DNA of 64,000 bases from a bacterium (GTDB taxonomy: Bacteria; Patescibacteriota; Dojkabacteria; SC72): contig JAIORF010000102.1 of NCBI GenBank assembly GCA_021108295.1, forward strand, positions 295,963 to 359,962, given 5' to 3'. The notes below the pieces were generated by a model. That model did not search any database. It had not been told where the DNA came from and worked only from the letters and a program-made list of their open reading frames with translations. Position numbers and translations under genes: made by a program. This document shows positions 1-53,877 of the stretch, one piece after another (within the stretch, counting starts at the first letter, position 1; each line of letters starts with the position of its first letter).

Positions 1-3000
1 AAAGCCATCATAGCACCCTTCTTGGTAGATATCCTTCTCACCTTGTTTATCAAAACTCCTAGTACAACCATTGTGCTATCTTTCTTCTCTAATGCCAAGT
101 CTATACTTATTACTCCCTTACTCTCAAAAAATTCTTGTAAATTATCCAATGGGTGGCTGGAGAAGTATAGGCCAAGTAATTCTTTCTCCCATTGTAATAT
201 TTGAATAACTGAGGTCTTTTCAACTTGAGGTAGAGGAGTAGCTTGTATTATCCTCCTCTTTGCTTCCTTGTGATTATCTCCCACACTAAAGATATCCATT
301 TGTCCTGCACTAAAGATTTTGCTCTCTTTCTTTGCATTCTCGTAGACACTTTCCAGAAGGAGTATAAGGGCTCCTCTATCACCAAATTCATCAAGTGCTC
401 CTGCTTTAATTAGATACTCTACTGCTTTTTTAGATAACTTCTTGTCGATTAGACGATATATTAAATCATTTAAACTGGTATACTCTCCACCTTCTTCTCT
501 CTCCTTTACAATATCTTTTATCACATCTTCCCCTACATTCTTCACTGCACCTAGACCAAATCTAATATCTTTATCATCTTCTATACTGAAGTAGAAGTTA
601 CTTTTGTTAATGGTTGGGGAAAGGACATCAATACCTAGTCTTTCACACTCTTTAAGATCTATAATTATTCTCTCGAAGTTATCCAAGTCCCCCTCTAGAA
701 GTGCTGCCATGAATTCTAATGGATAGTGTGCTTTAAGATATGCTGTCCAGTAGGAAATAGTGGCGTAAGATGCACTATGTGCTTTGTTAAAACCGTAATT
801 GGCAAACTGCAAGAGTTTTACCCACAACCGTTCTACTTCTGCCATATCATAGCCTTGTTTTTTTGCACCTTTCATAAAGACAGGCTTCTCTGCTTCCATG
901 ACATCGATTAATTTTTTACCCATAGCTCTTCGTAGAATGTCAGCACCTCCTAAGGTGTAGCCCCCAACGATTTGAGCAATCTTCATAACCTGTTCTTGGT
1001 ATGTGATAACTCCATTGGTAATTTTTAGTACATCTTCTAACTCTTTAAACACATAGTCTGGATTCTGTTTCCCTTCTTTAACTGCTACATATTCTGAGAT
1101 ATATTTCATGGGTCCGGGACGATATGCTGCTAGGATGTAGCACAGATCTTCTTGAGTTGTAGGTTTAAGCGCTTTTATTGTACGCCTCATACCAGAGCTT
1201 TCCATTTGAAAAACTCCTACCGTATGGCCTTTTCTAATTATCTGAAACGTTTTCTTGTCGTGTGGATCTAGTTCTCCCAAGACAATTTTTTCCTTACGAT
1301 TAGCTTCTACCTTTTTGATAGCAGCTCCAATTACATTAAGATTACGTAATCCGAGGAAGTCAAACTTCATTAATCCTATTGATTCAATATCCTTCATCTC
1401 AAATTGAGTCATACCAATACCTCCACCATGGGCATCCCTTTGAATTGGACAGTACTCGATTACGGGGGATGGGGTTATGATAATGCCACAAGCGTGTGTA
1501 CCTACATTCCTGTGTATTCCTGTAACTTTTCTTACAATCTCTGCAAGTCTCTCTGTATCAGGAGATGTGTGAATGATTTCTGCAAATTCGGAGTTGTTCT
1601 CAATCATGTAATCTATGCCCTTTGCTTTGCCAAAGACTATCTCTACCATCTTGGACAGTTGGTCGGCCACACTTAGGTCAATTCCAATTACACGAGCTAC
1701 ATCACGAATAGCTTGTCTGGTTTGTAACTTACCAAACGTTATTATCTGCTTTACATTCTCTTCACCATATCTGTCTATGGTGTATTTTATAAGTTGGTCT
1801 CTCCCTTTATCTGCAATATCAATATCAAAATCGGGTGGAGAGTTTCTCTCCGGATTAAGGAATCTTTCAAAGTAGAGTTCCCAACCAATCGGTTCAATAT
1901 CAGTTATTTCAACACAATATGCAACCACAGAACCACAACCAGAGCCTCTCATACCTACGACAATATCATGGTCACGACAAAACATTACAAAATCTCTAAC
2001 TACTAAGAAGTAGTCGTTGTATTTCTTACTGTTAATAATTTCTAATTCATACTCTATACGCTCCTTCAAATCTTTTGTTAACTTCCCATATTTTTTCTTT
2101 GCCCCCTCAAGTGTTAACTTTTTAAGATGTGACTTAGCCGTCTGCCCTTTAGGGAGATCTAGGGTGTGTGGCTCTACTCTATCCCATGTAATATCGTAGT
2201 TCTCTATACTATCTACAATCTTTTGAGTATTCTCAATTGCCTCTGGAAGGTCTTTGAACAGCTCTTCCATTTCTTCTGGAGTCTTGACATAAAATTCATT
2301 AGTAGGCATTACACGTCTATTGGGATCGTCCCATGTTTTACCATCGTTAATACACCAAAGGATTTCTTGTATCTCTGCATCTTCTCTATTGATGTAGTGG
2401 CTATCACATGTAGCTACTATTGGTAATTTCAACTCATCTGCTATCTTAAGTAACCCTTTGTTTACAGCCTTTTGTTCCTCCATTCCATTGCGTTGAACTT
2501 CAATGTAGAAGTTGTCCTTAAAGACTTTGGCATATTTCTTTGCAGTACTAAGTGCTTCTTTTGGTTGATTATTAAGCAGGGGTCTTGATATTGGACCTGC
2601 TAGACATGCTGAGAGTGCTATTATCCCCTCTGAGTATTTAGAAAGTGTCTTGAGATCAATACGTGGTTTGTAGTAGAACCCTTCCATATGTGCAACAGAT
2701 ACAATTTTTACCAAGTTTTTGTATCCCTTTAAGTTCTTGGCTAGGAGTACTAAATGGAAATATTTATTATCTATCCCATACTCCTTCTCTTCCATACTTC
2801 GTGGTGCGACATATATTTCACAACCGAGTATTGGTTTGAGACCTGCTTTTTCCATATAGCTTTTGAATTTGTATGCACCATACATATTCCCATGGTCTGT
2901 AATCGCACAGGAAGACATATTACTTTTTTTGAGTTTTTCTATCAGGTCATCAATTTTTGTAGTAGCATCTAGTAGTGAGAATTCTGTATGAAGATGTAGA

Positions 3001-3011
3001 TGTGTAAACAT
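1..3011 (-). CDS. dnaE: DNA polymerase III alpha subunit (partial; C-terminus runs off window start)
   Basis: Minus-strand translation from the ATG at 3009-3011 gives MFTHLHLHTEFSLLDAT..., the PHP-domain N-terminus of DnaE. The frame stays open to position 1. The ORF track omits it because it is truncated at the window edge. Confidence 0.9.
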   Translation of the reverse strand, partial: MFTHLHLHTEFSLLDATTKIDDLIEKLKKSNMSSCAITDHGNMYGAYKFKSYMEKAGLKPILGCEIYVAPRSMEEKEYGIDNKYFHLVLLAKNLKGYKNLVKIVSVAHMEGFYYKPRIDLKTLSKYSEGIIALSACLAGPISRPLLNNQPKEALSTAKKYAKVFKDNFYIEVQRNGMEEQKAVNKGLLKIADELKLPIVATCDSHYINREDAEIQEILWCINDGKTWDDPNRRVMPTNEFYVKTPEEMEELFKDLPEAIENTQKIVDSIENYDITWDRVEPHTLDLPKGQTAKSHLKKLTLEGAKKKYGKLTKDLKERIEYELEIINSKKYNDYFLVVRDFVMFCRDHDIVVGMRGSGCGSVVAYCVEITDIEPIGWELYFERFLNPERNSPPDFDIDIADKGRDQLIKYTIDRYGEENVKQIITFGKLQTRQAIRDVARVIGIDLSVADQLSKMVEIVFGKAKGIDYMIENNSEFAEIIHTSPDTERLAEIVRKVTGIHRNVGTHACGIIITPSPVIEYCPIQRDAHGGGIGMTQFEMKDIESIGLMKFDFLGLRNLNVIGAAIKKVEANRKEKIVLGELDPHDKKTFQIIRKGHTVGVFQMESSGMRRTIKALKPTTQEDLCYILAAYRPGPMKYISEYVAVKEGKQNPDYVFKELEDVLKITNGVITYQEQVMKIAQIVGGYTLGGADILRRAMGKKLIDVMEAEKPVFMKGAKKQGYDMAEVERLWVKLLQFANYGFNKAHSASYATISYWTAYLKAHYPLEFMAALLEGDLDNFERIIIDLKECERLGIDVLSPTINKSNFYFSIEDDKDIRFGLGAVKNVGEDVIKDIVKEREEGGEYTSLNDLIYRLIDKKLSKKAVEYLIKAGALDEFGDRGALILLLESVYENAKKESKIFSAGQMDIFSVGDNHKEAKRRIIQATPLPQVEKTSVIQILQWEKELLGLYFSSHPLDNLQEFFESKGVISIDLALEKKDSTMVVLGVLINKVRRISTKKGAMMA

Positions 3012-3048
3012 GATTTTGTTACATAGATTATTTCTGTTATACTAAATT

Positions 3049-3774
3049 ATGCCAAACACTGTCCAAAAATTACAGCCATATGTTAAAAGTGTGAGTAGTA
3101 AGCCTCAGAGAAATTGGAAGTTTTTTCTCGTACCACTATTATTGGTAGGATATATGTTCTTTCTTTCTCCGATGGTGGAACCTACTGTTAAGGATTTTCT
3201 GTTCGCTGCTATTCGAAGTAGTAAGACCGAAAGGTTTAACTTCTTGACACCAGTATATGCCACTTCCAATATTGGACAAACCTATGCTCTCTCCGTTATT
3301 GGTGATGAAAACCCACTGGATATGGTAAGTTCTAAAACTAGATATTATGTAAAAGATCCTAGGGTATTGGCTATGTCAGAGTTTCTGGGAGACTACAACT
3401 CTCCTATGCAACCCTATGCACAGGTATTCATTGTAGAGGCTGATAGATATGGATTAGACTGGAGACTGGTTGCAAGTATTTCTGGAGTAGAGTCTGCTTT
3501 TGGCAATCTTATACCTCATACAGGATATAATAATGGTTGGGGATGGAGAGGAGGCCCTGGTGGTGCTTACAGTGTATTTGAGGACTTTGGTAAAGGTATC
3601 GAGCATGTCACAGAACGTCTAGCTCTTGGATATGGTATAACGCTTACTCCTTTTGATATTGAGCCCACATACTGTCCCCCATGTGCTAACAACCCAAGTC
3701 ACTTGTGGGCAAATGGTGTAGTTCGTTATATGAGTGAATTAAACTACTATTTAAATAATTTAGAGAATATTTAG
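3049..3774 (+). CDS. membrane-anchored lysozyme-like (SLT/glucosaminidase-type) peptidoglycan hydrolase-like protein
   Basis: N-terminal TM helix. Motif RLVASISGVESAFGN...NNGWGW...YCPP resembles the catalytic Glu-Ser region of SLT/glucosaminidase folds. A paralog lies at 56271-56882. Confidence 0.4.
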   Translation: MPNTVQKLQPYVKSVSSKPQRNWKFFLVPLLLVGYMFFLSPMVEPTVKDFLFAAIRSSKTERFNFLTPVYATSNIGQTYALSVIGDENPLDMVSSKTRYYVKDPRVLAMSEFLGDYNSPMQPYAQVFIVEADRYGLDWRLVASISGVESAFGNLIPHTGYNNGWGWRGGPGGAYSVFEDFGKGIEHVTERLALGYGITLTPFDIEPTYCPPCANNPSHLWANGVVRYMSELNYYLNNLENI

Positions 3775-3776
3775 TT

Positions 3777-4064
3777 ATGATTAAATTAGTACTGCAGATA
3801 GCGTTTATTGTCGATACTCTTATTGAAGCGCTTATTATAGTCAGGGTTTTACTATCCATATTCTCTGCAAATCTCTCTAATATGTATGTAGCATGGGTTT
3901 TCTCTGCCTCCGACATATGCATCTCTCCATTTACTGGCATTACAGCGGATACCCTAGTTATTGACAACTTCCAAATCTCTATTACTCCAGTAGTTGCACT
4001 TGTTTTCTTTGCAATTGTAGGTTTTGTTCTCTCAGAGTTACTAAAAGCTTTTAGACACGACTAA
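3777..4064 (+). CDS. YggT-family small membrane protein (putative)
   Basis: 95 aa with two TM segments. Spacing of conserved hydrophobic/Pro positions is YggT-like (…LLSIF…ISPFTGITADTL…ISITPVVALVFF). Confidence 0.4.
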   Translation: MIKLVLQIAFIVDTLIEALIIVRVLLSIFSANLSNMYVAWVFSASDICISPFTGITADTLVIDNFQISITPVVALVFFAIVGFVLSELLKAFRHD

Positions 4065-4103
4065 AACGGGCTTTTTTAACGAAAATGTGGTATAATACGC
4101 CAT

Positions 4104-4841
4104 ATGGCCAAAACGAACTTAAAACAAAGTAGTGGTCTGCCCTTTTTTTTTAATGGTGAAACTATTCTCTCTGAAGAATTTCATCCAAAAGAAACCTCCA
4201 CTATACATATTGAAGATATTAAGCCTCAGCTTCTTAATCTTGATTTAGATTGTCCAGAAACCTTTTACACCAAATACAAGGATTTTGATAATCAGGCTCA
4301 AGATCTTAAAAATGCCGATCTCCGTGTAAATATGTACTTAATGAAACCTAATTTAGCAGGTATTGAGTTTACTAAATCCAAAGCTACAAAATGTAGTAGT
4401 TTTCCAAGACTCTTTGAAATTGTCTATGGTGGTGGGAATGTGTTACTTCAAAAATATACAGGTCCAATTCAGAACAAAGTGTATAGGCTTCAGGTGAAAA
4501 AAGGTAGTAAGTTCATTGTACCCCCAGGATATTCCATTTGTTTGATTAATACTAGACAAGCTTCTACATTAATCGCTATAGAGATATCCTGTAGAAAAGC
4601 TAGAACTCGCGTAGCGCTTGAAGATAAGCGTGGCATGTCCTATTATATTATTAGGAAGAACGCTAAAGTAGAAATAGTTAGAAATCCTGCCTACAAAATT
4701 ATTAACGATATTGAGGAAATTAATATTAACAAGGTTCTTAAAAGTTGGAATATTACTGCAAAGACACCGATACTTAAACAAATATTAAGAAACCATGAAA
4801 AGTTTGATTGGATATTTAAGAAAAGCGATATGGATTTCTAG
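4104..4841 (+). CDS. hypothetical protein, cupin-like (resembles cupin-type glucose-6-phosphate isomerase but lacks the metal-binding His)
   Basis: Segment VYGGGNVLLQ...FIVPPGYSICLINT...LIAIEI parallels cupin-PGI KGKGGMLLQ...VYVPPYWAHRTVN...FLAIYP. The HxH...E...H ligands are replaced. Confidence 0.3.
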   Translation: MAKTNLKQSSGLPFFFNGETILSEEFHPKETSTIHIEDIKPQLLNLDLDCPETFYTKYKDFDNQAQDLKNADLRVNMYLMKPNLAGIEFTKSKATKCSSFPRLFEIVYGGGNVLLQKYTGPIQNKVYRLQVKKGSKFIVPPGYSICLINTRQASTLIAIEISCRKARTRVALEDKRGMSYYIIRKNAKVEIVRNPAYKIINDIEEININKVLKSWNITAKTPILKQILRNHEKFDWIFKKSDMDF

Positions 4842-6639
4842 CTTCCTCTTTCTCTTTGTTTCACTCAATTCCAACTCCGTATTAGCACAAACAGGTATTT
4901 CAACAAGTTCCACATTCTCTCACACTGTTAAAACCAATGGATATGTAGATACAACTACCACACTCACTATCACATCTGATGAGAGAGTAGTTTTAACCTA
5001 CTACACTATCACCCTCTTACAAGACAATATTGAACCAAAGGTGTTTTCAATTACAGAAAACAAATCTTTGGAAGCAACTGTATATGACAGGAATAGTGCA
5101 ACAGATATACTGATCGATTTAGACAATGCAATTGTATCTCCAGATTCTCCACAAAAGATTCGTATCACATACTCCTATCCATACGACGACACAAATATTC
5201 TAAGTTTAAAATCTAAAGTTGCAGACACCAACACTTCAGAAGTCTCCATTACATACCCAAAGAGTCTTGGAGAAATAGAGTGGATATCTGATCAAGCTGA
5301 AAGTATCAAACAGGATAATACACATTACATACTCAATATCCAATCCCCAGATTCCTCAACTATCAAACTCATTTTCAACCAAGGGATTGTGTATAGGTTT
5401 GATATATCTAAATCCTTTAACAACCAAGGAGACTCTGCGACACAATATGAGCTTCTCATACCCCAAGACTCTCAATTTCAGAAAATTATAATTGAAGAAA
5501 TGAGTGTACAACCCACCCAAGTTATACAAGACAACAATTTTAATTACCTCCTTGTATTCACAGTAGATGCTCAGACTCAGATGGATGTAAAAATCTCAGG
5601 CTATGTGATAATGGAGCATCATAATTACTACCCTACACCTGATAGTGTGTACTACGACAGTACCAGTATATATTGGAGTTTAGAAAACAAACAGATTGAG
5701 AAGGTAGAACAATATCTTAAAGAGAACGGTATTGCAACAGATTCGGTAAAGAAAGATACCCTCATCAAATATCTTTACCGCTATACAATTGAAACACTCA
5801 CTCCATCTACACACTCCACATCACTCTCAGGAGGGATAAGGAAGGGAAGTGTTGAGATATTAAAGAACCCCATTAACTGCACTCCAGAAGACTACACAGA
5901 TATACTGAAGTCCCTTTTTGATTACTACCAAATACCAAGTATATACACCATAGGATACGTCTCTGACATATCAAGCTATCAAGAAGATGGAATGTTTCAC
6001 TACTGGGTACAATCATTTGATGGAAATCAATGGTTAACTCTAGACCCATACCTCGAGGACTACTCCAAAGTTTCTCTCTTTGGTAGAGAACACTCCGATC
6101 ACATTTCAATTCTTAATCGAATATATGAACCTATCTCCCCTACACTTCCCTACTACTCTGACAATGACATTCGTTTTGAGTATGTAAATGATAGCGATGT
6201 AGTCTACTCCCCACAAAGCAATCTATCGATTAATCTAGAACCCTACTCAATATTAAACAAATATATACATGGGAGTATCTTTATAGAAAATGTAGGGAAC
6301 ACTATACTAACAGGTATAGACTTCACAGACTCTACTCCTGATATAAATCAATATATTGACTATGTAAGTAACTCTACAAGTTCCATACTACTTCCACATA
6401 TGCAAAAATATATTAACTTTCATATTCCATTCGAAGATTTAGAACAATCTTTCATCTTCACAACTGCAAACGTCAAGAATGGAGAAGAAACAATTCAATC
6501 CGAACTCCTATCTACAAACTATTCAATTACTCAGCATACTGGTTATGAAATCCTAATTCAGGTAATCTCTGCACTCTCCTTCCTTACATTCCTCGGTGCT
6601 GTATATCTTTTTCTAAATAAAGTAGTATATAAGAGATGA
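4795..6639 (+). CDS. secreted/surface protein with transglutaminase-like (Cys-His-Asp) domain and C-terminal TM anchor
   Basis: Signal peptide MKSLIGYLRKAIWISSFLFLFVSLNSNSVLA. Motif NCTPEDYTD...GMFHYWVQSFDGNQWLTLDPY fits the transglutaminase-like core C...H...D. C-terminal hydrophobic helix. Confidence 0.5.
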   Translation: MKSLIGYLRKAIWISSFLFLFVSLNSNSVLAQTGISTSSTFSHTVKTNGYVDTTTTLTITSDERVVLTYYTITLLQDNIEPKVFSITENKSLEATVYDRNSATDILIDLDNAIVSPDSPQKIRITYSYPYDDTNILSLKSKVADTNTSEVSITYPKSLGEIEWISDQAESIKQDNTHYILNIQSPDSSTIKLIFNQGIVYRFDISKSFNNQGDSATQYELLIPQDSQFQKIIIEEMSVQPTQVIQDNNFNYLLVFTVDAQTQMDVKISGYVIMEHHNYYPTPDSVYYDSTSIYWSLENKQIEKVEQYLKENGIATDSVKKDTLIKYLYRYTIETLTPSTHSTSLSGGIRKGSVEILKNPINCTPEDYTDILKSLFDYYQIPSIYTIGYVSDISSYQEDGMFHYWVQSFDGNQWLTLDPYLEDYSKVSLFGREHSDHISILNRIYEPISPTLPYYSDNDIRFEYVNDSDVVYSPQSNLSINLEPYSILNKYIHGSIFIENVGNTILTGIDFTDSTPDINQYIDYVSNSTSSILLPHMQKYINFHIPFEDLEQSFIFTTANVKNGEETIQSELLSTNYSITQHTGYEILIQVISALSFLTFLGAVYLFLNKVVYKR

Positions 6640-48688: not shown

Positions 48689-48774
48689 TGTAAGCGTACG
48701 TTACAATTTATATATATTACATTATACATAATAGTTGATAAAATAGAATAGGGAATATATAATCACAGTAGTAA

Positions 48775-48846
48775 TCCGCGATAGCTCAATGGTAGAGCAA
48801 CTGACTGTTAATCAGTGGGTTGTAGGTTCGAGTCCTACTCGCGGAG
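48775..48846 (+). tRNA. tRNA-Asn (anticodon GUU)
   Basis: TCCGCGA...ACTGA-CTGTTAA-TCAGT...TCGCGGA-G. No CCA encoded. Confidence 0.8.
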
Positions 48847-49054
48847 TATTATTTAGAGTATATATACCCCCTTTTAGAGTATCAAAGAAAACGGGCCCAA
48901 TATCTTGTGTTCTCCAATAAAACGGAGAAAAAGATATCAGGCCCTAAAGCATTTTTTAAATATGTTTTTCTTTTTCAAGAAAACCTCCTTTGAGTGCCTC
49001 CTAATGGAAGCAAGGCACTCTTGGTTTAAGCTAGATCTTTTTAAAAGATCTACT

Positions 49055-50683
49055 TTACTCCTGTAGGCTATCTAGCCATTCGCAAAGTCCGAAGACTTCA
49101 CAGGAGCTGTCATACCAATTCCCCGCTGTTTCAACCCCTGAACATGGGTTGGAGAAGATCATTTTGGCTCCTAGGCGTTTACCTAGCTCCCAGGTTTGTG
49201 GTTCACAGCCATAAGCACACTTCTCAGCCAGTTCTTTCTCTGTGTAGAAGTGGTCTTTGGGAGCTTCCAGTTGGCAGATTGTGGTCCAGTTATCATGATC
49301 CGAACCTAGCCGGCGAAACAAATGCATCCACCGATCCGTTCTTACCGGAATACATGGTTCGCATTCCGCACGTTCGGGCCAAAGGACTATTTCTCCACTG
49401 AGAAACAATTCCGCTACCTCAAGGAAGTTTTCCTTTTCCCAAACGAAAGTATCGCATTCTCTTGACACTTCTTGGGTGTCAATGTATTTCACGTCACAGA
49501 CATAAGCCTTAAAACAATCTGAAAGATCTATTCGACCCTCAGATCCCTCTTGAGTCTTGGTTACTTCCCTACTACCAGGATCACTCCCCTCATCAGTGTC
49601 GCAGACGTGTGCCGTAAACTCGGAGTCTACAAACTCTTGAGTCCAGTCTCTGGCAGTTACCTGCGTTCCATAGAGAGTAAAGGTACCATCGCCATTGTCA
49701 ATCCAGTCATCTTCCCAAACCGGATCACCAATATCATACCAATCGCCGTACTCTTTCCCCTGATCAATTGTTGTCTCACAGGTGGCCGTTCCGGTTTTGG
49801 TAACTTCCCGGCTTCCAGGATCACTCCCCTCATCAGTGTCGCAGACGTGTGCCGTAAACTCGGAGTCTACAAACTCTTGAGTCCAGTCTCTGGCAGTTAC
49901 CTGCGTTCCATAGAGAGTAAAAGTTCCATCGCCATTGTCAACCCAGTTTTCTTCCCAGACCGGATCACCAATATCATACCAATCGCCGTACTCTTTCCCC
50001 TGATCAATTGTCGTCTCACAGGTGGGCGTCCTAGTTTCGGTTACTTCCCGGCTACCAGGATCGCTCCCCTCATCAGTGTCGCAAATATGAGTCTCGTCAT
50101 ATTTATCTACGACTTCCTGCGTCCAGTCCACAGCAGTGGCTTGGGTGCCGGTTTGGGTAAAAGTCCCATCACCGTTGTCGATCCAGTCATTATTCCATAC
50201 AGGATCTCCAACGTCGTACCACTCTCCGTACACCTTATCTAAGGTGACGGTTTCCGAACAAAGTACATAACACTTCTCCACCGTGAACGTATACTGTGTT
50301 GAAGTTGCCCTCAACACCCATCCCCAATTTAGAAACCCTATCCTCTTCCACTCATACACCACCGAATGGGTAGTGTGGACACCAGGAACAATATCTTCCA
50401 CTAATGTCTCCATGTGGATAGTGCCCCAGCCGGTATCGTCATCTACGACTTCACCGTCTACAAGGGTTTCTGACTTATAGAACCTGTTGTGTGAACCCAC
50501 CCATGTTGATTTTATGGTGGCTTCCTCACACACGTCAGTATTAGTTGACATCCCTTGAAAATGACATGCCAAAGGCCTGTCTACGGGCATTGCTGCTACC
50601 GACTTAACGGAGAAACTTGAAAACCCAAGCACTCCCACTACCAGTAGTAATACTGCTGTTAATAGAACATTTTTCTTCTTCAT
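49055..50683 (-). CDS. secreted Cys-containing protein with three 80-aa tandem repeats
   Basis: Start moved to MKKKNVLL (ATG at 50681-50683, preceded by AAGGAAAG). Signal peptide present. Repeats TCETTIDQGKEYGDWYDIGDPVWE.NW.DNGDGTFT.YGTQVTARDWTQEFVD...CDTDEGSDPGSREVT x3. Cys-rich C-terminal domain. Confidence 0.6.
   Translation of the reverse strand: MKKKNVLLTAVLLLVVGVLGFSSFSVKSVAAMPVDRPLACHFQGMSTNTDVCEEATIKSTWVGSHNRFYKSETLVDGEVVDDDTGWGTIHMETLVEDIVPGVHTTHSVVYEWKRIGFLNWGWVLRATSTQYTFTVEKCYVLCSETVTLDKVYGEWYDVGDPVWNNDWIDNGDGTFTQTGTQATAVDWTQEVVDKYDETHICDTDEGSDPGSREVTETRTPTCETTIDQGKEYGDWYDIGDPVWEENWVDNGDGTFTLYGTQVTARDWTQEFVDSEFTAHVCDTDEGSDPGSREVTKTGTATCETTIDQGKEYGDWYDIGDPVWEDDWIDNGDGTFTLYGTQVTARDWTQEFVDSEFTAHVCDTDEGSDPGSREVTKTQEGSEGRIDLSDCFKAYVCDVKYIDTQEVSRECDTFVWEKENFLEVAELFLSGEIVLWPERAECEPCIPVRTDRWMHLFRRLGSDHDNWTTICQLEAPKDHFYTEKELAEKCAYGCEPQTWELGKRLGAKMIFSNPCSGVETAGNWYDSSCEVFGLCEWLDSLQE
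49559..50278. repeat. 3 x 240-bp tandem direct repeats (units 1 and 2 ~97% identical, unit 3 diverged) inside the secreted-protein gene
   Basis: Units begin with ggttacttccctactaccagg (49559), ggtaacttcccggcttccagg (49799) and ggttacttcccggctaccagg (50039). Confidence 0.8.
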
Positions 50684-51009
50684 CGTTCTTTCCTTTTTCT
50701 CTAGTCTAATAGGACACATCCAACTTTCTTGACAATATCACCTCCTTAAAGGTTCTTACATAACATATTTAATATTTACTTTTTAAAGATCTCTTTAGTT
50801 TGCTTTCATTAAGAAAAAGTTCTCAAACTACTCACAAACCCAAATTTGATTGACAATACAAAATTGTACAATCGCTATAATATAGCCTATAATACGCAGA
50901 TTGTCAATCTACAAACACCCTCACAGACTTCTTTTTCTATGAAAGATTTTGTATAATATAACCTTACACATTGTAGAATGTGAAGTATTTATATTACACC
51001 TAAGTAACC

Positions 51010-51606
51010 ATGAAAATAGCTATAATCCTCCTCTATGGTCTATACGACCCCAAAAATACTAACTACCAAGCATATTTCGACTTTCTAATTACAGAAATTA
51101 AAAAACAGAAATTCGACAAAGTAATACTCTGTGGAGGCTATACATTCCCTCATATAGAAAATATCTCTGAAGCAGAATCTGCAAAAAGATATCTACAATC
51201 AAAATCTCAGTATGATGACTACATCCTCGAGGATAAGTCTATAAACACTAATCAAAACTTAGAATTTGCCTCAAAACACATATCTAGCAAAGACGACTTG
51301 TTTGTATACGGCGATTGGATAAGGATAGCAAAAATATCTTGGATATCTGCACACTTCCTTCTTAAAGAAAGCCTTGAGAACATCTTTAATGCAATGATGC
51401 AATTTGTATACAAAAAGGAGCCCTACAAACCATTCACCATGAAGAACCTAACTGTAATAGGGTATGATTTCAAAGGAAAATCTAAAGAAGAGATGGTAGG
51501 ACAAACTTTCGCGACTCTCTTCGATGTCATTTCTCTATACAACAAAGACTTTGAGAAACAAAATATAGATCAAAGAAAGAAAGATTTCGGATTAAATAAC
51601 TCTTAA
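51010..51606 (+). CDS. DUF218 (YdcF-like) domain protein
   Basis: KVILCGGYTFPHIENISEAESAKRYL matches the DUF218 core. Confidence 0.5.
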   Translation: MKIAIILLYGLYDPKNTNYQAYFDFLITEIKKQKFDKVILCGGYTFPHIENISEAESAKRYLQSKSQYDDYILEDKSINTNQNLEFASKHISSKDDLFVYGDWIRIAKISWISAHFLLKESLENIFNAMMQFVYKKEPYKPFTMKNLTVIGYDFKGKSKEEMVGQTFATLFDVISLYNKDFEKQNIDQRKKDFGLNNS

Positions 51607-51612
51607 CACCCT

Positions 51613-52233
51613 ATGGAACAAAATCTATTAGACAACCTAAAACAAATACACTCAGAAGTTATCAAGAACTACAAAGCTATTCCTAAACTAACTGAACTAC
51701 AAGCAGAAGCAAACAAGGCTTTTGACAAGCGAATAGAACAACTTCTTTCAAAGAAAGATCTTGTAAGGAAAATAAAGGTACCTAAGATACATATCAAGCT
51801 CTGGAAACACAAAGATAAAAGAATCAAGATACCTATAAACTGGAAATATCTTCTAAGTGCACCCTTTATATACGGTATGTTCACTCCCTCAGTAGTCTTT
51901 CATATTGCAATAGAGATATATCATCAAATATGTTTCAGACTCTACGGTATTCCTCTTGTAGACTCTAAGGAATACTTTATATACGATCGACAACTTTTCG
52001 ATATGTTAAATACCTGGGAGAAGATAAATTGTAAATATTGTAGCTATATTAACAACCTTATTCGATATAGTGCAGAGATAGGAGGTCGTACAGAGAGATA
52101 TTGGTGTCCAATAAAGTACTACCGAAGGGTTGATAATGTACATTCACAGTATACAAAGTTTGTAGATGGTGATGACGAGAAGGAAATGAGAGAGAAATGG
52201 GAAGAACTACGTGATTTTTCGGATTTGGAGTAG
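51613..52233 (+). CDS. hypothetical membrane-associated Cys-containing protein
   Basis: Central hydrophobic segment. C...CKYC...WCP residues. No family recognised. Lies between two DUF218 genes. Confidence 0.35.
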   Translation: MEQNLLDNLKQIHSEVIKNYKAIPKLTELQAEANKAFDKRIEQLLSKKDLVRKIKVPKIHIKLWKHKDKRIKIPINWKYLLSAPFIYGMFTPSVVFHIAIEIYHQICFRLYGIPLVDSKEYFIYDRQLFDMLNTWEKINCKYCSYINNLIRYSAEIGGRTERYWCPIKYYRRVDNVHSQYTKFVDGDDEKEMREKWEELRDFSDLE

Positions 52234-52876
52234 ATATATGAAAAACTTACACATTAGAATAACAACAATACTCCTAATCCTACTCACCTACTTCGTTCTA
52301 GTACCCTCACTAATCCTCCAATACGGTAAAAGCAAAATATATACAGACATCAGTAAAATACCAACCTACAACATAGCCATAGTCTTTGGAGCTGGACTAA
52401 AACCAGACGGAACACCAAACGATATGCTAGAAGACAGACTAGACACAGCAGTTGAACTCTACAACGAAGGGAAAATAGAAAAACTCCTCCTCTCTGGAGA
52501 CAACTCCCTAGAAGAATACAACGAACCACAAGCAATGTACGAATACCTCACACTCATCAAAGAACTACCACCAGAAGATGTAGTACGCGACTTTGCAGGA
52601 CTAAGAACATATGACACATGTGCAAGAGCTAAAAACATTTGGAATATAGATGAAGCAATACTCATATCACAAGGCTACCACCTCTCAAGAGCAATATTCA
52701 CATGCAATACGCTAGGAGTAGAAAGTACAGGATTCTCTGCTACCAAAGATATATACATAGGAGAGACATACTACAAACTAAGAGAAATACTAGCTATACA
52801 CAAAGCCCTAATAGACATATATATAATCCACCCTGAATACATAGGGGGAGAAGTAGAGACAGATTTCCTTAATTAA
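52211..52876 (+). CDS. SanA/YdcF-family (DUF218) membrane-anchored protein
   Basis: N-terminal TM. IAIVFGAGLKPDGTPNDMLEDRLDTAVELYNEGKIEKLLLSGDN...TYDTCARA...ISQGYHLSRAIFTC. Confidence 0.6.
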   Translation: MIFRIWSRYMKNLHIRITTILLILLTYFVLVPSLILQYGKSKIYTDISKIPTYNIAIVFGAGLKPDGTPNDMLEDRLDTAVELYNEGKIEKLLLSGDNSLEEYNEPQAMYEYLTLIKELPPEDVVRDFAGLRTYDTCARAKNIWNIDEAILISQGYHLSRAIFTCNTLGVESTGFSATKDIYIGETYYKLREILAIHKALIDIYIIHPEYIGGEVETDFLN

Positions 52877-53877
52877 ACAAACTTCATACCCATAGCTTTC
52901 TCCACTTCACTGATTACCTCCCTTGCATTAGCCTTAGCCAACCTCTTACCCTTCTCTAATACCCCTAATACATAATCATCAGATACTGAAGCCTTCTTCT
53001 TCTGAAAAGCCTTTAGAAACCCTTCCATCACCTCCATCAAAAGGCTCTTAAACTCACCCATTACCTGCTCCCCATCCAAATGCTTCTGTAAGATACTCTC
53101 AAATTCATTTTTCTGTTCATCAGTAGATACATAATCAGCAATTAGCTTCAAACTCTTTAAATCCTCACTCATATCCCCTGCAAAAGCACTCTTTGCTCGC
53201 TTAATCTTCTTGAGAGAAACATCAATATCATCATCCAGTAATATTGCACCATTAGGCTCACTCTTACTCATCTTCTTACCACTACCAGTAAGTGAAAGGA
53301 TATTGATTCCTTCACCACTATCAAGTGGCTTTGAAGCTAGAAATACATCCCCATACTTTTTGTTAAAACGCTTTACCAAATCATTTGTAACCTCTAAATG
53401 AACATACTGATCCTTGCCCACAGGAACATACCTAGAACCCTGAAGTAATATATCAGCAGCCATCATTACAGGGTAAAAAGCAAGAAGAGTATTAGCTGTA
53501 GCTTCACCATTCCCTTTTTTAATTTTCTCTTTAAGAGTAGGTACTCTAAGTAGTTCTGCTACTGTAATTAATCTAGAAAGATATATGGTCAACTTACTAA
53601 CCTCATCCATTATCTGACTCTGCACAAAAAGATCCACCTTCTTTGGATCTAGACCAGCTGCAATGTAATCTTTGATAACGGAAAGAACATTACCCTGAGT
53701 TTCACTAGGCTCTTCAGTTGTAAGACTGTGTAAATCTGCAACAAAAATCATTGGCTTGCCCAATGAACCATCTTGCATAATGCGAAGTATTGGATCAACA
53801 ACACCTATTAGATTAGCAATACTCATACCAGAAGTAGCTCTCATTCCAGTAAATATATCTGTTTTGTAATTTTTCAT
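52873..53877 (-). CDS. trpS: tryptophan--tRNA ligase
   Basis: Class I aaRS. N-terminal TGMRATSGMSIANLIG (HIGH-region variant) and KMSKS (GSGKKMSKSEPN). Confidence 0.9.
   Translation of the reverse strand: MKNYKTDIFTGMRATSGMSIANLIGVVDPILRIMQDGSLGKPMIFVADLHSLTTEEPSETQGNVLSVIKDYIAAGLDPKKVDLFVQSQIMDEVSKLTIYLSRLITVAELLRVPTLKEKIKKGNGEATANTLLAFYPVMMAADILLQGSRYVPVGKDQYVHLEVTNDLVKRFNKKYGDVFLASKPLDSGEGINILSLTGSGKKMSKSEPNGAILLDDDIDVSLKKIKRAKSAFAGDMSEDLKSLKLIADYVSTDEQKNEFESILQKHLDGEQVMGEFKSLLMEVMEGFLKAFQKKKASVSDDYVLGVLEKGKRLAKANAREVISEVEKAMGMKFV

Follow-up and report, generated by a model that had tools for sequence, protein, structure and literature searches.

How did a single gene for an apparently secreted repeat protein, far richer in guanine plus cytosine (GC) than the DNA around it, come to lie beside a tRNA-Asn gene in a Dojkabacteria-like bacterium, and what might its product do? 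The question is raised by a stretch of 64,000 nucleotides (the window; NCBI GenBank assembly GCA_021108295.1, contig JAIORF010000102.1, positions 295,963 to 359,962 of the forward strand), for which a preliminary description, made from the sequence alone, had pointed to a 1.63-kb minus-strand gene and had proposed that it forms a horizontally acquired islet. That gene, a coding sequence (CDS) of 1629 bp at 49055-50683, was found to occupy an inserted segment of 2140 bp (48847-50986) that begins exactly at the 3′ end of the tRNA gene, in agreement with the proposal. Recent horizontal acquisition is supported because the insertion is precise as compared to two outgroups, because both the synonymous codons and the translation signal of the gene are foreign, and because a recombinase makes use of the same tRNA gene in a related genome (L004); we regard horizontal acquisition of the gene as highly likely.

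Insertion of a 2.1-kb segment at the 3′ end of tRNA-Asn

The locus was compared among assemblies of the window species (the window itself, L001, L023 and L024), L019-L021, which are three Logan contigs from a sister species, and L022 (GCA_040364315.1), from a more distant relative. At the amino acid level, the DUF218 (YdcF-like) protein of the window is 86% identical to that of the sister species and 66% to that of L022, and HPF is 94% identical to a copy in an unclassified metagenome-assembled genome (MAG) and 62-66% identical to those of Candidatus Dojkabacteria MAGs, which identifies the source of the window as Dojkabacteria-like. The order iPGM, RF-1, FtsE, FtsX, M23, SurA-like, HPF (minus strand), tRNA-Asn (plus strand) and DUF218 (plus strand) is kept in L019-L022, where no gene is present between tRNA-Asn and DUF218 and the tRNA is separated from the DUF218 start codon by 22-40 bp; in L019 the tRNA-Asn gene ends in ...CGCGGAGCCA, with the DUF218 ATG 22 bp further on. 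As HPF, tRNA-Asn and DUF218 are contiguous in the sister species as well as in the more distant relative, the segment 48847-50986 represents an insertion, and the absence of the gene from this site in L019-L022 supports its acquisition by the window species.

Both boundaries of the insertion were located by comparison with the sister species. The two tRNA-Asn genes are identical across 72 nt, and that of the sister species continues with an encoded CCA, whereas the match to the window stops after ...CGCGGAG (48846) and the insert stands in place of the CCA. Homology restarts at ATTTATATTACACC (50987), 23 bp ahead of the DUF218 ATG. The flanking DNA is 83% (left, 4.86 kb) and 80-91% (right) identical to that of L019, the sister species being about 83% identical at the DNA level. 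The hexamer TATTTA is present at both junctions (48850-48855 and 50986-50991), which in DNA this AT-rich would be weak evidence for a target duplication. The gene occurs with identical junctions in four independent assemblies of the window species (the window, L001, L023 and L024), and misassembly is unlikely because the same junctions recur in this way. Protein searches did not yield a sister-species ortholog of the 542-aa product, though conservation like that of the flanks (HPF 94%, DUF218 86%) should be detectable, and a blastn-short search with the non-coding flanks of the insert against the rest of the window and all loci gave no match. Insertion at a tRNA gene, absence from relatives with conserved flanks (L019-L022), and a composition and codon usage unlike those of the host are all island-like traits of this segment.

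The same tRNA gene has also been used by another element. In L004 (JAQWFF010000004.1), which belongs to a Dojkabacteria MAG with an HPF identity of 66%, a large serine recombinase of 524 aa with Resolvase, Recombinase and Zn_ribbon_recom domains converges on and overlaps the 3′ end of tRNA-Asn, and beyond it lie a 187-aa open reading frame (ORF) of no known identity and an 828-aa HsdM/HsdS fusion of a type I restriction-modification system (L004:428-5407). This is a different island at the same tRNA-Asn site. A contig of a sister-species MAG (L003; JAIOSB010000028.1) starts inside tRNA-Asn (L003:1-60), representing an assembly break at the hotspot. Further differences by insertion or deletion are found just downstream when the sister contig (L019:7617-11255) is compared to the window (51613-53877), the sister species having in addition some 640 bp, in which an ORF of 82 aa and a peptide-deformylase fragment of 73 aa are found, and a 240-aa gene ahead of that for tryptophanyl-tRNA synthetase; the tRNA-Asn neighbourhood is a zone of gene flux. 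Adjoining DUF218 in the window is a plus-strand gene (51613-52233) for a 206-aa protein that is kept in the sister species and has no match in Pfam or NCBIfam.

Base composition, codon usage and translation signal

The CDS has a GC content of 47.9% as compared to 36.5% for the rest of the window, which is the maximum among windows of 1629 bp (z=7.8), and it is also the largest outlier of the tetranucleotide profile (z=6.9). The compositional anomaly, previously given as about 50% against about 35%, is thus real, albeit with figures slightly rounded up, and the profile across the window is not uniform. At 200-bp resolution the rise in GC is limited to the CDS, in which the three codon positions (GC1/2/3) have values of.53/.43/.47 as compared to window means of.45/.33/.31. 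To split the excess, the protein was recoded with the codons as used by the 49 remaining ORFs of the window. Under host codon usage the recoded protein predicts 42.6% GC, the expected maximum for the other genes being 41.4%, and of the approximately 11.5 GC points of excess about 6 are due to amino acid composition and 5.4 are synonymous. The GC3 of the CDS is.472 as compared to.323 expected, a deviation of +.149 (z=4.0) against a background with a standard deviation of.038 and a maximum of +.086. CGG accounts for 22% of the arginine codons of the CDS and for 1% of those of the host, while ACG, CCG and TCG, as host-rare G- or C-ending codons, are enriched three- to five-fold. The earlier suggestion of a donor with a higher GC content is supported by the synonymous sites and qualified by the share that amino acid composition accounts for. 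For members of the same protein family (described below) on contigs L002, L007, L008, L013 and L015 the GC3 excess is about zero, their codon usage matching the local one, with the Kazan-type copies (L009, L012) as the exception. As relatives mostly match local codon usage, the synonymous deviation is specific to this insertion and does not represent a trait of the family.

The translation signal of the gene is likewise foreign to its surroundings. When ORFs of at least 150 aa were scanned for a Shine-Dalgarno (SD)-like 4-mer within positions -20 to -4, such a motif was missing upstream of 47 of the 50 ORFs of the window, the other three having just a 4-mer, and the start at 50683 of the acquired gene was found to be preceded by AAGGA at the correct spacing, as had been noted in the preliminary description. 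Related Dojkabacteria contigs, among them L004, L019 and L022, are equally poor in SD motifs (0/12, 0/10 and 2/14 ORFs), and this lineage seems to initiate translation without them. An SD precedes 9 of 13 ORFs on L007, a phage-like contig, and motifs resembling that of the acquired gene are present on the family genes in L002, L007 and L013. For a host so poor in SD motifs, the foreign SD poses the question of how such a gene would be translated.

These data also bear on the alternative that the gene is ancestral and native, that its GC content reflects a gene-specific amino acid or codon bias, and that the relatives have lost it. The 42.6% GC predicted from amino acid composition alone is above the value of every other gene of the window, and in most contigs the GC content of family genes exceeds that of the DNA around them, both of which would be expected under such a bias. 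The deviation at synonymous sites (z=4.0) is, however, beyond what amino acid composition explains, family members match the local codon usage in five other contexts, and the SD is foreign to the lineage. Independent losses would moreover be needed in the sister species and in L022, the site being without the gene also in L004 and in the 525 bp of L005, and the junction falls exactly at the last base of the tRNA with the CCA replaced. We consider an ancestral native gene very improbable.

The encoded protein, its family and their genomic settings

The features of the region are collected in Table 1. The minus-strand ORF spans 49055-50719, and the ATG at 50683 is the likely start, giving a 542-aa product (MKKKNVLL...) that matches the NCBI record. 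The gene and tRNA-Asn are convergent; the gene lies on the 3′ side of the tRNA as previously described, and 208 bp separate the 3′ end of the tRNA from the stop codon. An Rfam search gave the tRNA as the sole match. The palindrome that overlaps the stop codon is possibly a weak terminator hairpin, and is below the criteria of the terminator scan. In the 5′ leader of the gene a mini-ORF encodes the peptide MSRKLDVSY, with a perfect SD 5 nt ahead, and could specify a leader peptide or be left over from its setting in the donor. A divergent promoter match on the plus strand (50865-50893; consensus scan only) could now drive DUF218.

Table 1. Features of the tRNA-Asn region, in window positions
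Feature	Position	Strand	Basis or remark
tRNA-Asn (GTT)	48775..48846	+	ARAGORN; Rfam tRNA 75.6 bits; insertion target
Islet, 2140 bp	48847..50986		Comparison with sister species and more distant relative
AT-rich palindrome AGATCTTTT/AAAAGATCT	49027..49057	-	Inverted repeat; overlaps stop codon
CDS, 542 aa, 1629 bp	49055..50683	-	Stop codon 49055-49057
C-terminal Cys-rich domain, aa 442-542	49058..49360	-	jackhmmer; pLDDT 40-60
Short Cys-bounded module, about aa 382-441	49361..49540	-	jackhmmer; low AlphaFold2 confidence
Repeat unit 3, aa 302-381	49541..49780	-	91-95% DNA identity to unit 2
Repeat unit 2, aa 222-301	49781..50020	-	AlphaFold2 pLDDT 95.6; four long antiparallel beta strands
Repeat unit 1, aa 142-221	50021..50260	-	Divergent copy; 65-67% DNA identity to units 2 and 3
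N-terminal beta-sandwich (Ig/FN3-like), aa 32-141	50261..50590	-	jackhmmer; AlphaFold2 pLDDT 91-95
Predicted signal peptide, aa 1-31	50591..50683	-	Sequence inspection; AlphaFold2 helix 4-23, then low-confidence linker
Shine-Dalgarno-like AAGGAAAG	50688..50695	-	At -12..-5 from ATG 50683
Perfect SD AAGGAGGTGA (50747-50738) and TTG-started 9-codon mini-ORF (50735-50706)	50706..50747	-	Read from sequence
Best sigma-70-like promoter match of the gene, TTGACA-17-TATATT, 11/12	50879..50907	-	Consensus scan only

The mature protein is acidic (pI 4.15) and rich in T, D, E, G and W, and it contains 20 Cys residues, 11 of which fall within the last 153 residues, so that the Cys-rich C-terminal module noted earlier is borne out. 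The signal peptide noted earlier is likewise supported by inspection of the N-terminus (MKKKNVLLTAVLLLVVGVLGFSSFSVKSVAA, followed by MP), which revealed an n-region MKKK, a hydrophobic core of 17 residues and a cleavage-like site between SVKSVAA and MP, without a lipobox. The C-terminus (...CEVFGLCEWLDSLQE) has neither an LPXTG motif nor a hydrophobic tail. Tandem Repeats Finder detected a period of 240 bp (2.8 copies, score 936), corresponding to the three 80-aa units already recognized, of which the near-identical pair proved to be, in protein order, units 2 and 3 rather than units 1 and 2, which had been taken to be about 97% identical. Between units 2 and 3 the DNA identity is 91% for the full 240 nt and 95% for the first 225 nt, with synonymous differences at 10 codons and non-synonymous ones at 7. 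In L001 and L024, which belong to the same species, the gene encodes a 462-aa form with two repeats, L001 being without exactly one 240-bp unit at the join of units 2 and 3; the change from three repeats in the window to two in these assemblies is either real length variation or assembly collapse.

Structure prediction with AlphaFold2 gave confident models for part of the protein. Repeat 2, modelled with a 35-repeat alignment, was predicted with a mean pLDDT (predicted local distance difference test) of 95.6 as an elongated flat sheet with strands at residues 6-18, 23-30, 35-54 and 61-80. The full-length model has a pLDDT of 73.6, with a confident beta-sandwich at about residues 40-140 (pLDDT 91-95) and confident repeats, while its C-terminal 160 residues are unreliable. 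With the full-length model as query, Foldseek returned only generic Ig/FN3-like matches from PDB and BFVD (TM, template modelling score, about 0.1), among them Ig-like domains of LacZ, arrays of FN3 domains and cytokine receptors, the low TM being due to the use of the full-length query.

In sequence databases the protein has few relatives. Pfam (0 families at E<=0.1 over the whole protein), NCBIfam and PHROGs contain no family for it, and a profile of 35 repeats searched against PDB sequences gave nothing relevant. Apart from the protein itself, a word-index search returned only its two-repeat counterpart in the same species and a single marine protein with 55% identity, the nearest database relative being 55-58% identical, and the same kind of search with the 35-repeat alignment gave no match. 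The 542-aa product was also looked up in a contig index as an exact sequence, with no result. An exhaustive phmmer search of 1.84 billion representatives yielded 36 proteins at E<=1e-3, of which about 33 were kept as a family; the Bacteroidetes DNGDGTFT repeat proteins P0014, P0033 and P0037 were rejected as low-complexity motif matches without the Cys/Asp framework. A metagenome scan added six true members, all of them represented already. No relative was detected in IMG/VR (2.9 million contigs) with the window protein, P0004 or a 10-sequence repeat alignment as queries, nor by tblastn in the 50,697 phage genomes of INPHARED, and a literature search on Dojkabacteria surface proteins was uninformative.

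The family consists of signal-peptide-bearing mosaic proteins of 98-1004 aa. Its 80-aa module follows the consensus C.ET....K.YG...DVG.PVWG.W.DNGDGTFTR.G.Q.....WTQ..VD......VC....G, in which C3, D54 and C62 are invariant and W28 is nearly so. By jackhmmer, the N-terminal domain, which ends in the CYxxC junction motif of the family, is common to P0004, P0009, P0018, P0028, P0035 and P0007, and the C-terminal Cys-rich domain to P0003, P0008, P0010, P0011, P0015 and P0036. The short Cys-bounded module recurs, often in tandem, in P0004, P0007, P0013, P0025 and P0032, and two members (P0018 and P0022) end in a hydrophobic C-terminal anchor. The motif GC[TV]D..A.NY...A..DD.SC.Y was observed between modules of P0016, P0019, P0020, P0024, P0029 and P0035. 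The sources that could be placed are few and all belong to the Candidate Phyla Radiation (CPR), an example being candidate division Kazan KKW26434.1.

The most similar architecture (N-terminal domain, two repeats and the short Cys-bounded module, at 40% identity) is that of P0004, which is encoded on the 18-kb contig L007 (Logan ERR2856278). This contig also encodes SSB, a GH25 endolysin, a DNA-polymerase exonuclease subunit and many small ORFs (L007:1-14975), and on the opposite strand a block of large tail-like ORFs, including one for a 1018-aa product with matches among the hypothetical proteins of uncultured Caudoviricetes; neither a terminase nor a capsid gene was identified in the part of L007 examined. 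Judged by its gene content L007 may represent a CPR phage, and the P0004 gene has the GC content and codon usage of the contig. Other members occur in different settings. P0039 is found near a VirD4/TraG-like ATPase and an SLT domain protein, and the Kazan copy sits among housekeeping genes, so that a link of the family to mobile elements is suggested and is not general. The GTG start of P0039 is overlapped on its contig (L008:9120-12148) by the ORF of a secreted 312-aa protein that contains the short Cys-bounded module, and a frameshift may have divided what is a single gene into these two; L008 furthermore carries tRNA-Ile, tRNA-Ala and an ORF-free stretch of 46-51% GC (about 2700-6000), which suggests that it holds an rRNA gene beside the VirD4/TraG-like gene. 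In the Kazan-type contig L009 (5911-12587) the family gene has 62% GC as compared to 52.5% (GC3 excess +0.14), its distance to another tRNA-Asn(GTT) is 3.6 kb, and it is followed directly by four small ORFs of no known identity; this setting may be a coincidence or another tRNA-Asn-linked acquisition.

The context of P0004 lends itself to an explanation in which the gene of the window is a moron, left as the remnant of a prophage or integrative element at tRNA-Asn, and in which its product serves the element and not the cell, as a secreted superinfection-exclusion, receptor-masking or lysis-associated factor instead of an adhesin for attachment to a host. P0004 lies at the end of the replication/lysis-side module of a phage-like contig, with its own signal peptide and native codon usage, the SD usage of the gene in the window is like that of L007 and unlike that of the host, and a serine-recombinase island occupies the same tRNA site in L004. 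Against this, the window contains no phage gene, integrase or att remnant, the family was missing from both phage collections searched, and the surroundings of other members are those of an ordinary chromosome (L009/L010). No gene for phage structure, replication or lysis adjoins the insert, where HPF, tRNA-Asn and DUF218 are neighbours conserved in relatives. A role in the service of the element appears unlikely to us; this reading concerns the origin of the gene more than its function and in that respect overlaps with the explanation that we prefer, an acquired islet with a secreted stalk or adhesion protein as cargo.

Origin and function of the islet, and its relation to known systems

According to the explanation that we prefer, the islet with its single gene would have entered the lineage of a Dojkabacteria-like CPR bacterium precisely where tRNA-Asn ends. 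It probably came from a phage, or from some other mobile element of CPR bacteria, that had a higher GC content and SD-led translation, and the recombination machinery would have been lost later or would never have accompanied the gene. A CPR phage or mobile element appears to be the most plausible vector because of the SD usage, the moderate GC content and the phage-like context of P0004. The product would be a Sec-exported, acidic and disulfide-rich modular protein composed of an Ig-like N-terminal beta-sandwich, three 80-aa beta-sheet repeats stacked as a rod, the short Cys-bounded module and the Cys-rich terminal domain. Its extracellular role would most likely be that of a stalk-like surface or adhesion protein, the reach of which could be tuned by repeat number. 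Such a function fits the signal peptide, the even number of Cys residues at conserved positions, the Ig-like head, the predicted rod-like repeats and the conserved terminal domain. The earlier suggestion of an adhesin, surface effector or host-interaction factor of an episymbiont is likewise consistent with the predicted structure and the architecture of the family, and we put forward adhesin or stalk function, on these structural predictions, as a tentative assignment only. Taken as a whole, a horizontally acquired single-gene islet at tRNA-Asn with a secreted stalk or adhesion protein as cargo is in our judgement the probable explanation.

Several observations weigh against it. About half of the GC excess is intrinsic to the amino acid composition of the protein, and the non-coding flanks of the insert are host-like (29-37% GC). 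No integrase, recombinase or other mobile-element gene is present in or beside the insert, where the CDS is the only gene-like ORF, and no copy of the tRNA 3′ end that could serve as an att site was found within 48700-51100, only the 6-bp TATTTA being shared by the two junctions. Integration at a tRNA hotspot, as proposed initially, holds for the position of the insertion at the last tRNA base and for the recombinase island in L004, and lacks an integrase or att site in the window. Matches of 12-13 nt of the AAAGATCT type on either side of the gene were tried as att sites and discarded, being barely above chance (5 of 100 shuffles reach their count). As no family member was found in IMG/VR or INPHARED, the link to phages comes from one contig. 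The difference between two and three repeats is perhaps a collapse of short-read assembly, L001 having 5x coverage and L023 breaking inside the gene. The C-terminal domain is without a confident model, and neither a cell-wall nor a membrane anchor is present in the window protein, which makes its release, as opposed to its display, possible.

The last two points would suit a different function, that of a secreted enzyme or toxin in which the Cys-rich C-terminal domain is active as an effector and the repeats are a spacer. This domain, for which the fold has no confident model, is kept as a unit in six otherwise different proteins, and the window protein is without an anchor. No match to a catalytic or toxin family was obtained in Pfam, NCBIfam, PHROGs or PDB sequences, however, and the domains that were confidently modelled are all-beta Ig-like or rod modules; an effector of this kind is, in our estimation, rather improbable. 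A wider view of the adhesive islet is also conceivable, in which the family of about 33 members forms a CPR-specific toolkit of disulfide-stapled surface modules (the Ig-like head, the 80-aa rod repeat, the 55-aa Cys-bounded module and the Cys-rich terminal domain) that is shuttled by CPR phages or mobile elements, the islet then representing a new attachment factor. We give this little credence; if true, the protein would be a mobile determinant of episymbiont host range with its length tuned by repeat number.

To our knowledge CPR genomes are tiny and cases of horizontal gene transfer in them have rarely been resolved to the base, and the present locus is of modest value as the recent gain, with sharply defined boundaries, of a gene by a CPR bacterium. 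A second point of interest is its cargo, by which a small and so far undescribed domain family is defined; the fold predicted for it with confidence is elongated, and members have to date come from CPR-type metagenomic contigs and one contig that is phage-like. Should attachment of CPR bacteria to partner cells depend on such proteins, which is speculation, this family would be a candidate.

Among known surface proteins, the G5-E (B-repeat) stalks of staphylococcal SasG/Aap, and other G5 domains such as those of HP0197 and IgA1 protease, bear a weak likeness to the predicted repeats of the window protein. Both have tandem units of about 80 residues with neighbours that are highly identical at the DNA level, both have, here by prediction, elongated flat beta-sheet units, which would stack end to end as a rod, and in both an N-terminal globular domain is borne on the repeats, the number of which may vary between strains. 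The differences from SasG/Aap are that no sequence relationship exists (no match to Pfam G5 PF07501 or to PDB sequences), that the units here each have two Cys and one Asp that are invariant, that an LPXTG anchor is missing, and that the host is a CPR bacterium and not a Firmicute. With phage morons, or lysogenic-conversion genes, for secreted or surface proteins the islet has in common that it is a self-contained cassette with a promoter-like site, an SD and a hairpin, that its composition differs from that of its surroundings, and that a homologue is present on the phage-like contig L007, while it differs from them in that there is no surrounding prophage and that the family is missing from the phage collections searched. 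As compared to tRNA genomic islands the segment is small (2.1 kb) and holds one gene, without an integrase or tRNA-derived direct repeats, and its junction lies after the last tRNA base and not inside the tRNA gene. It nevertheless shares with such islands and islets the insertion at a tRNA 3′ end, the atypical GC content and codons, the absence from close relatives, a surface or secreted cargo, and a tRNA at which L004, too, has an island, in that case with a recombinase. The event itself is thus an ordinary, textbook one, a small foreign islet at a tRNA gene that carries a secreted repeat protein.

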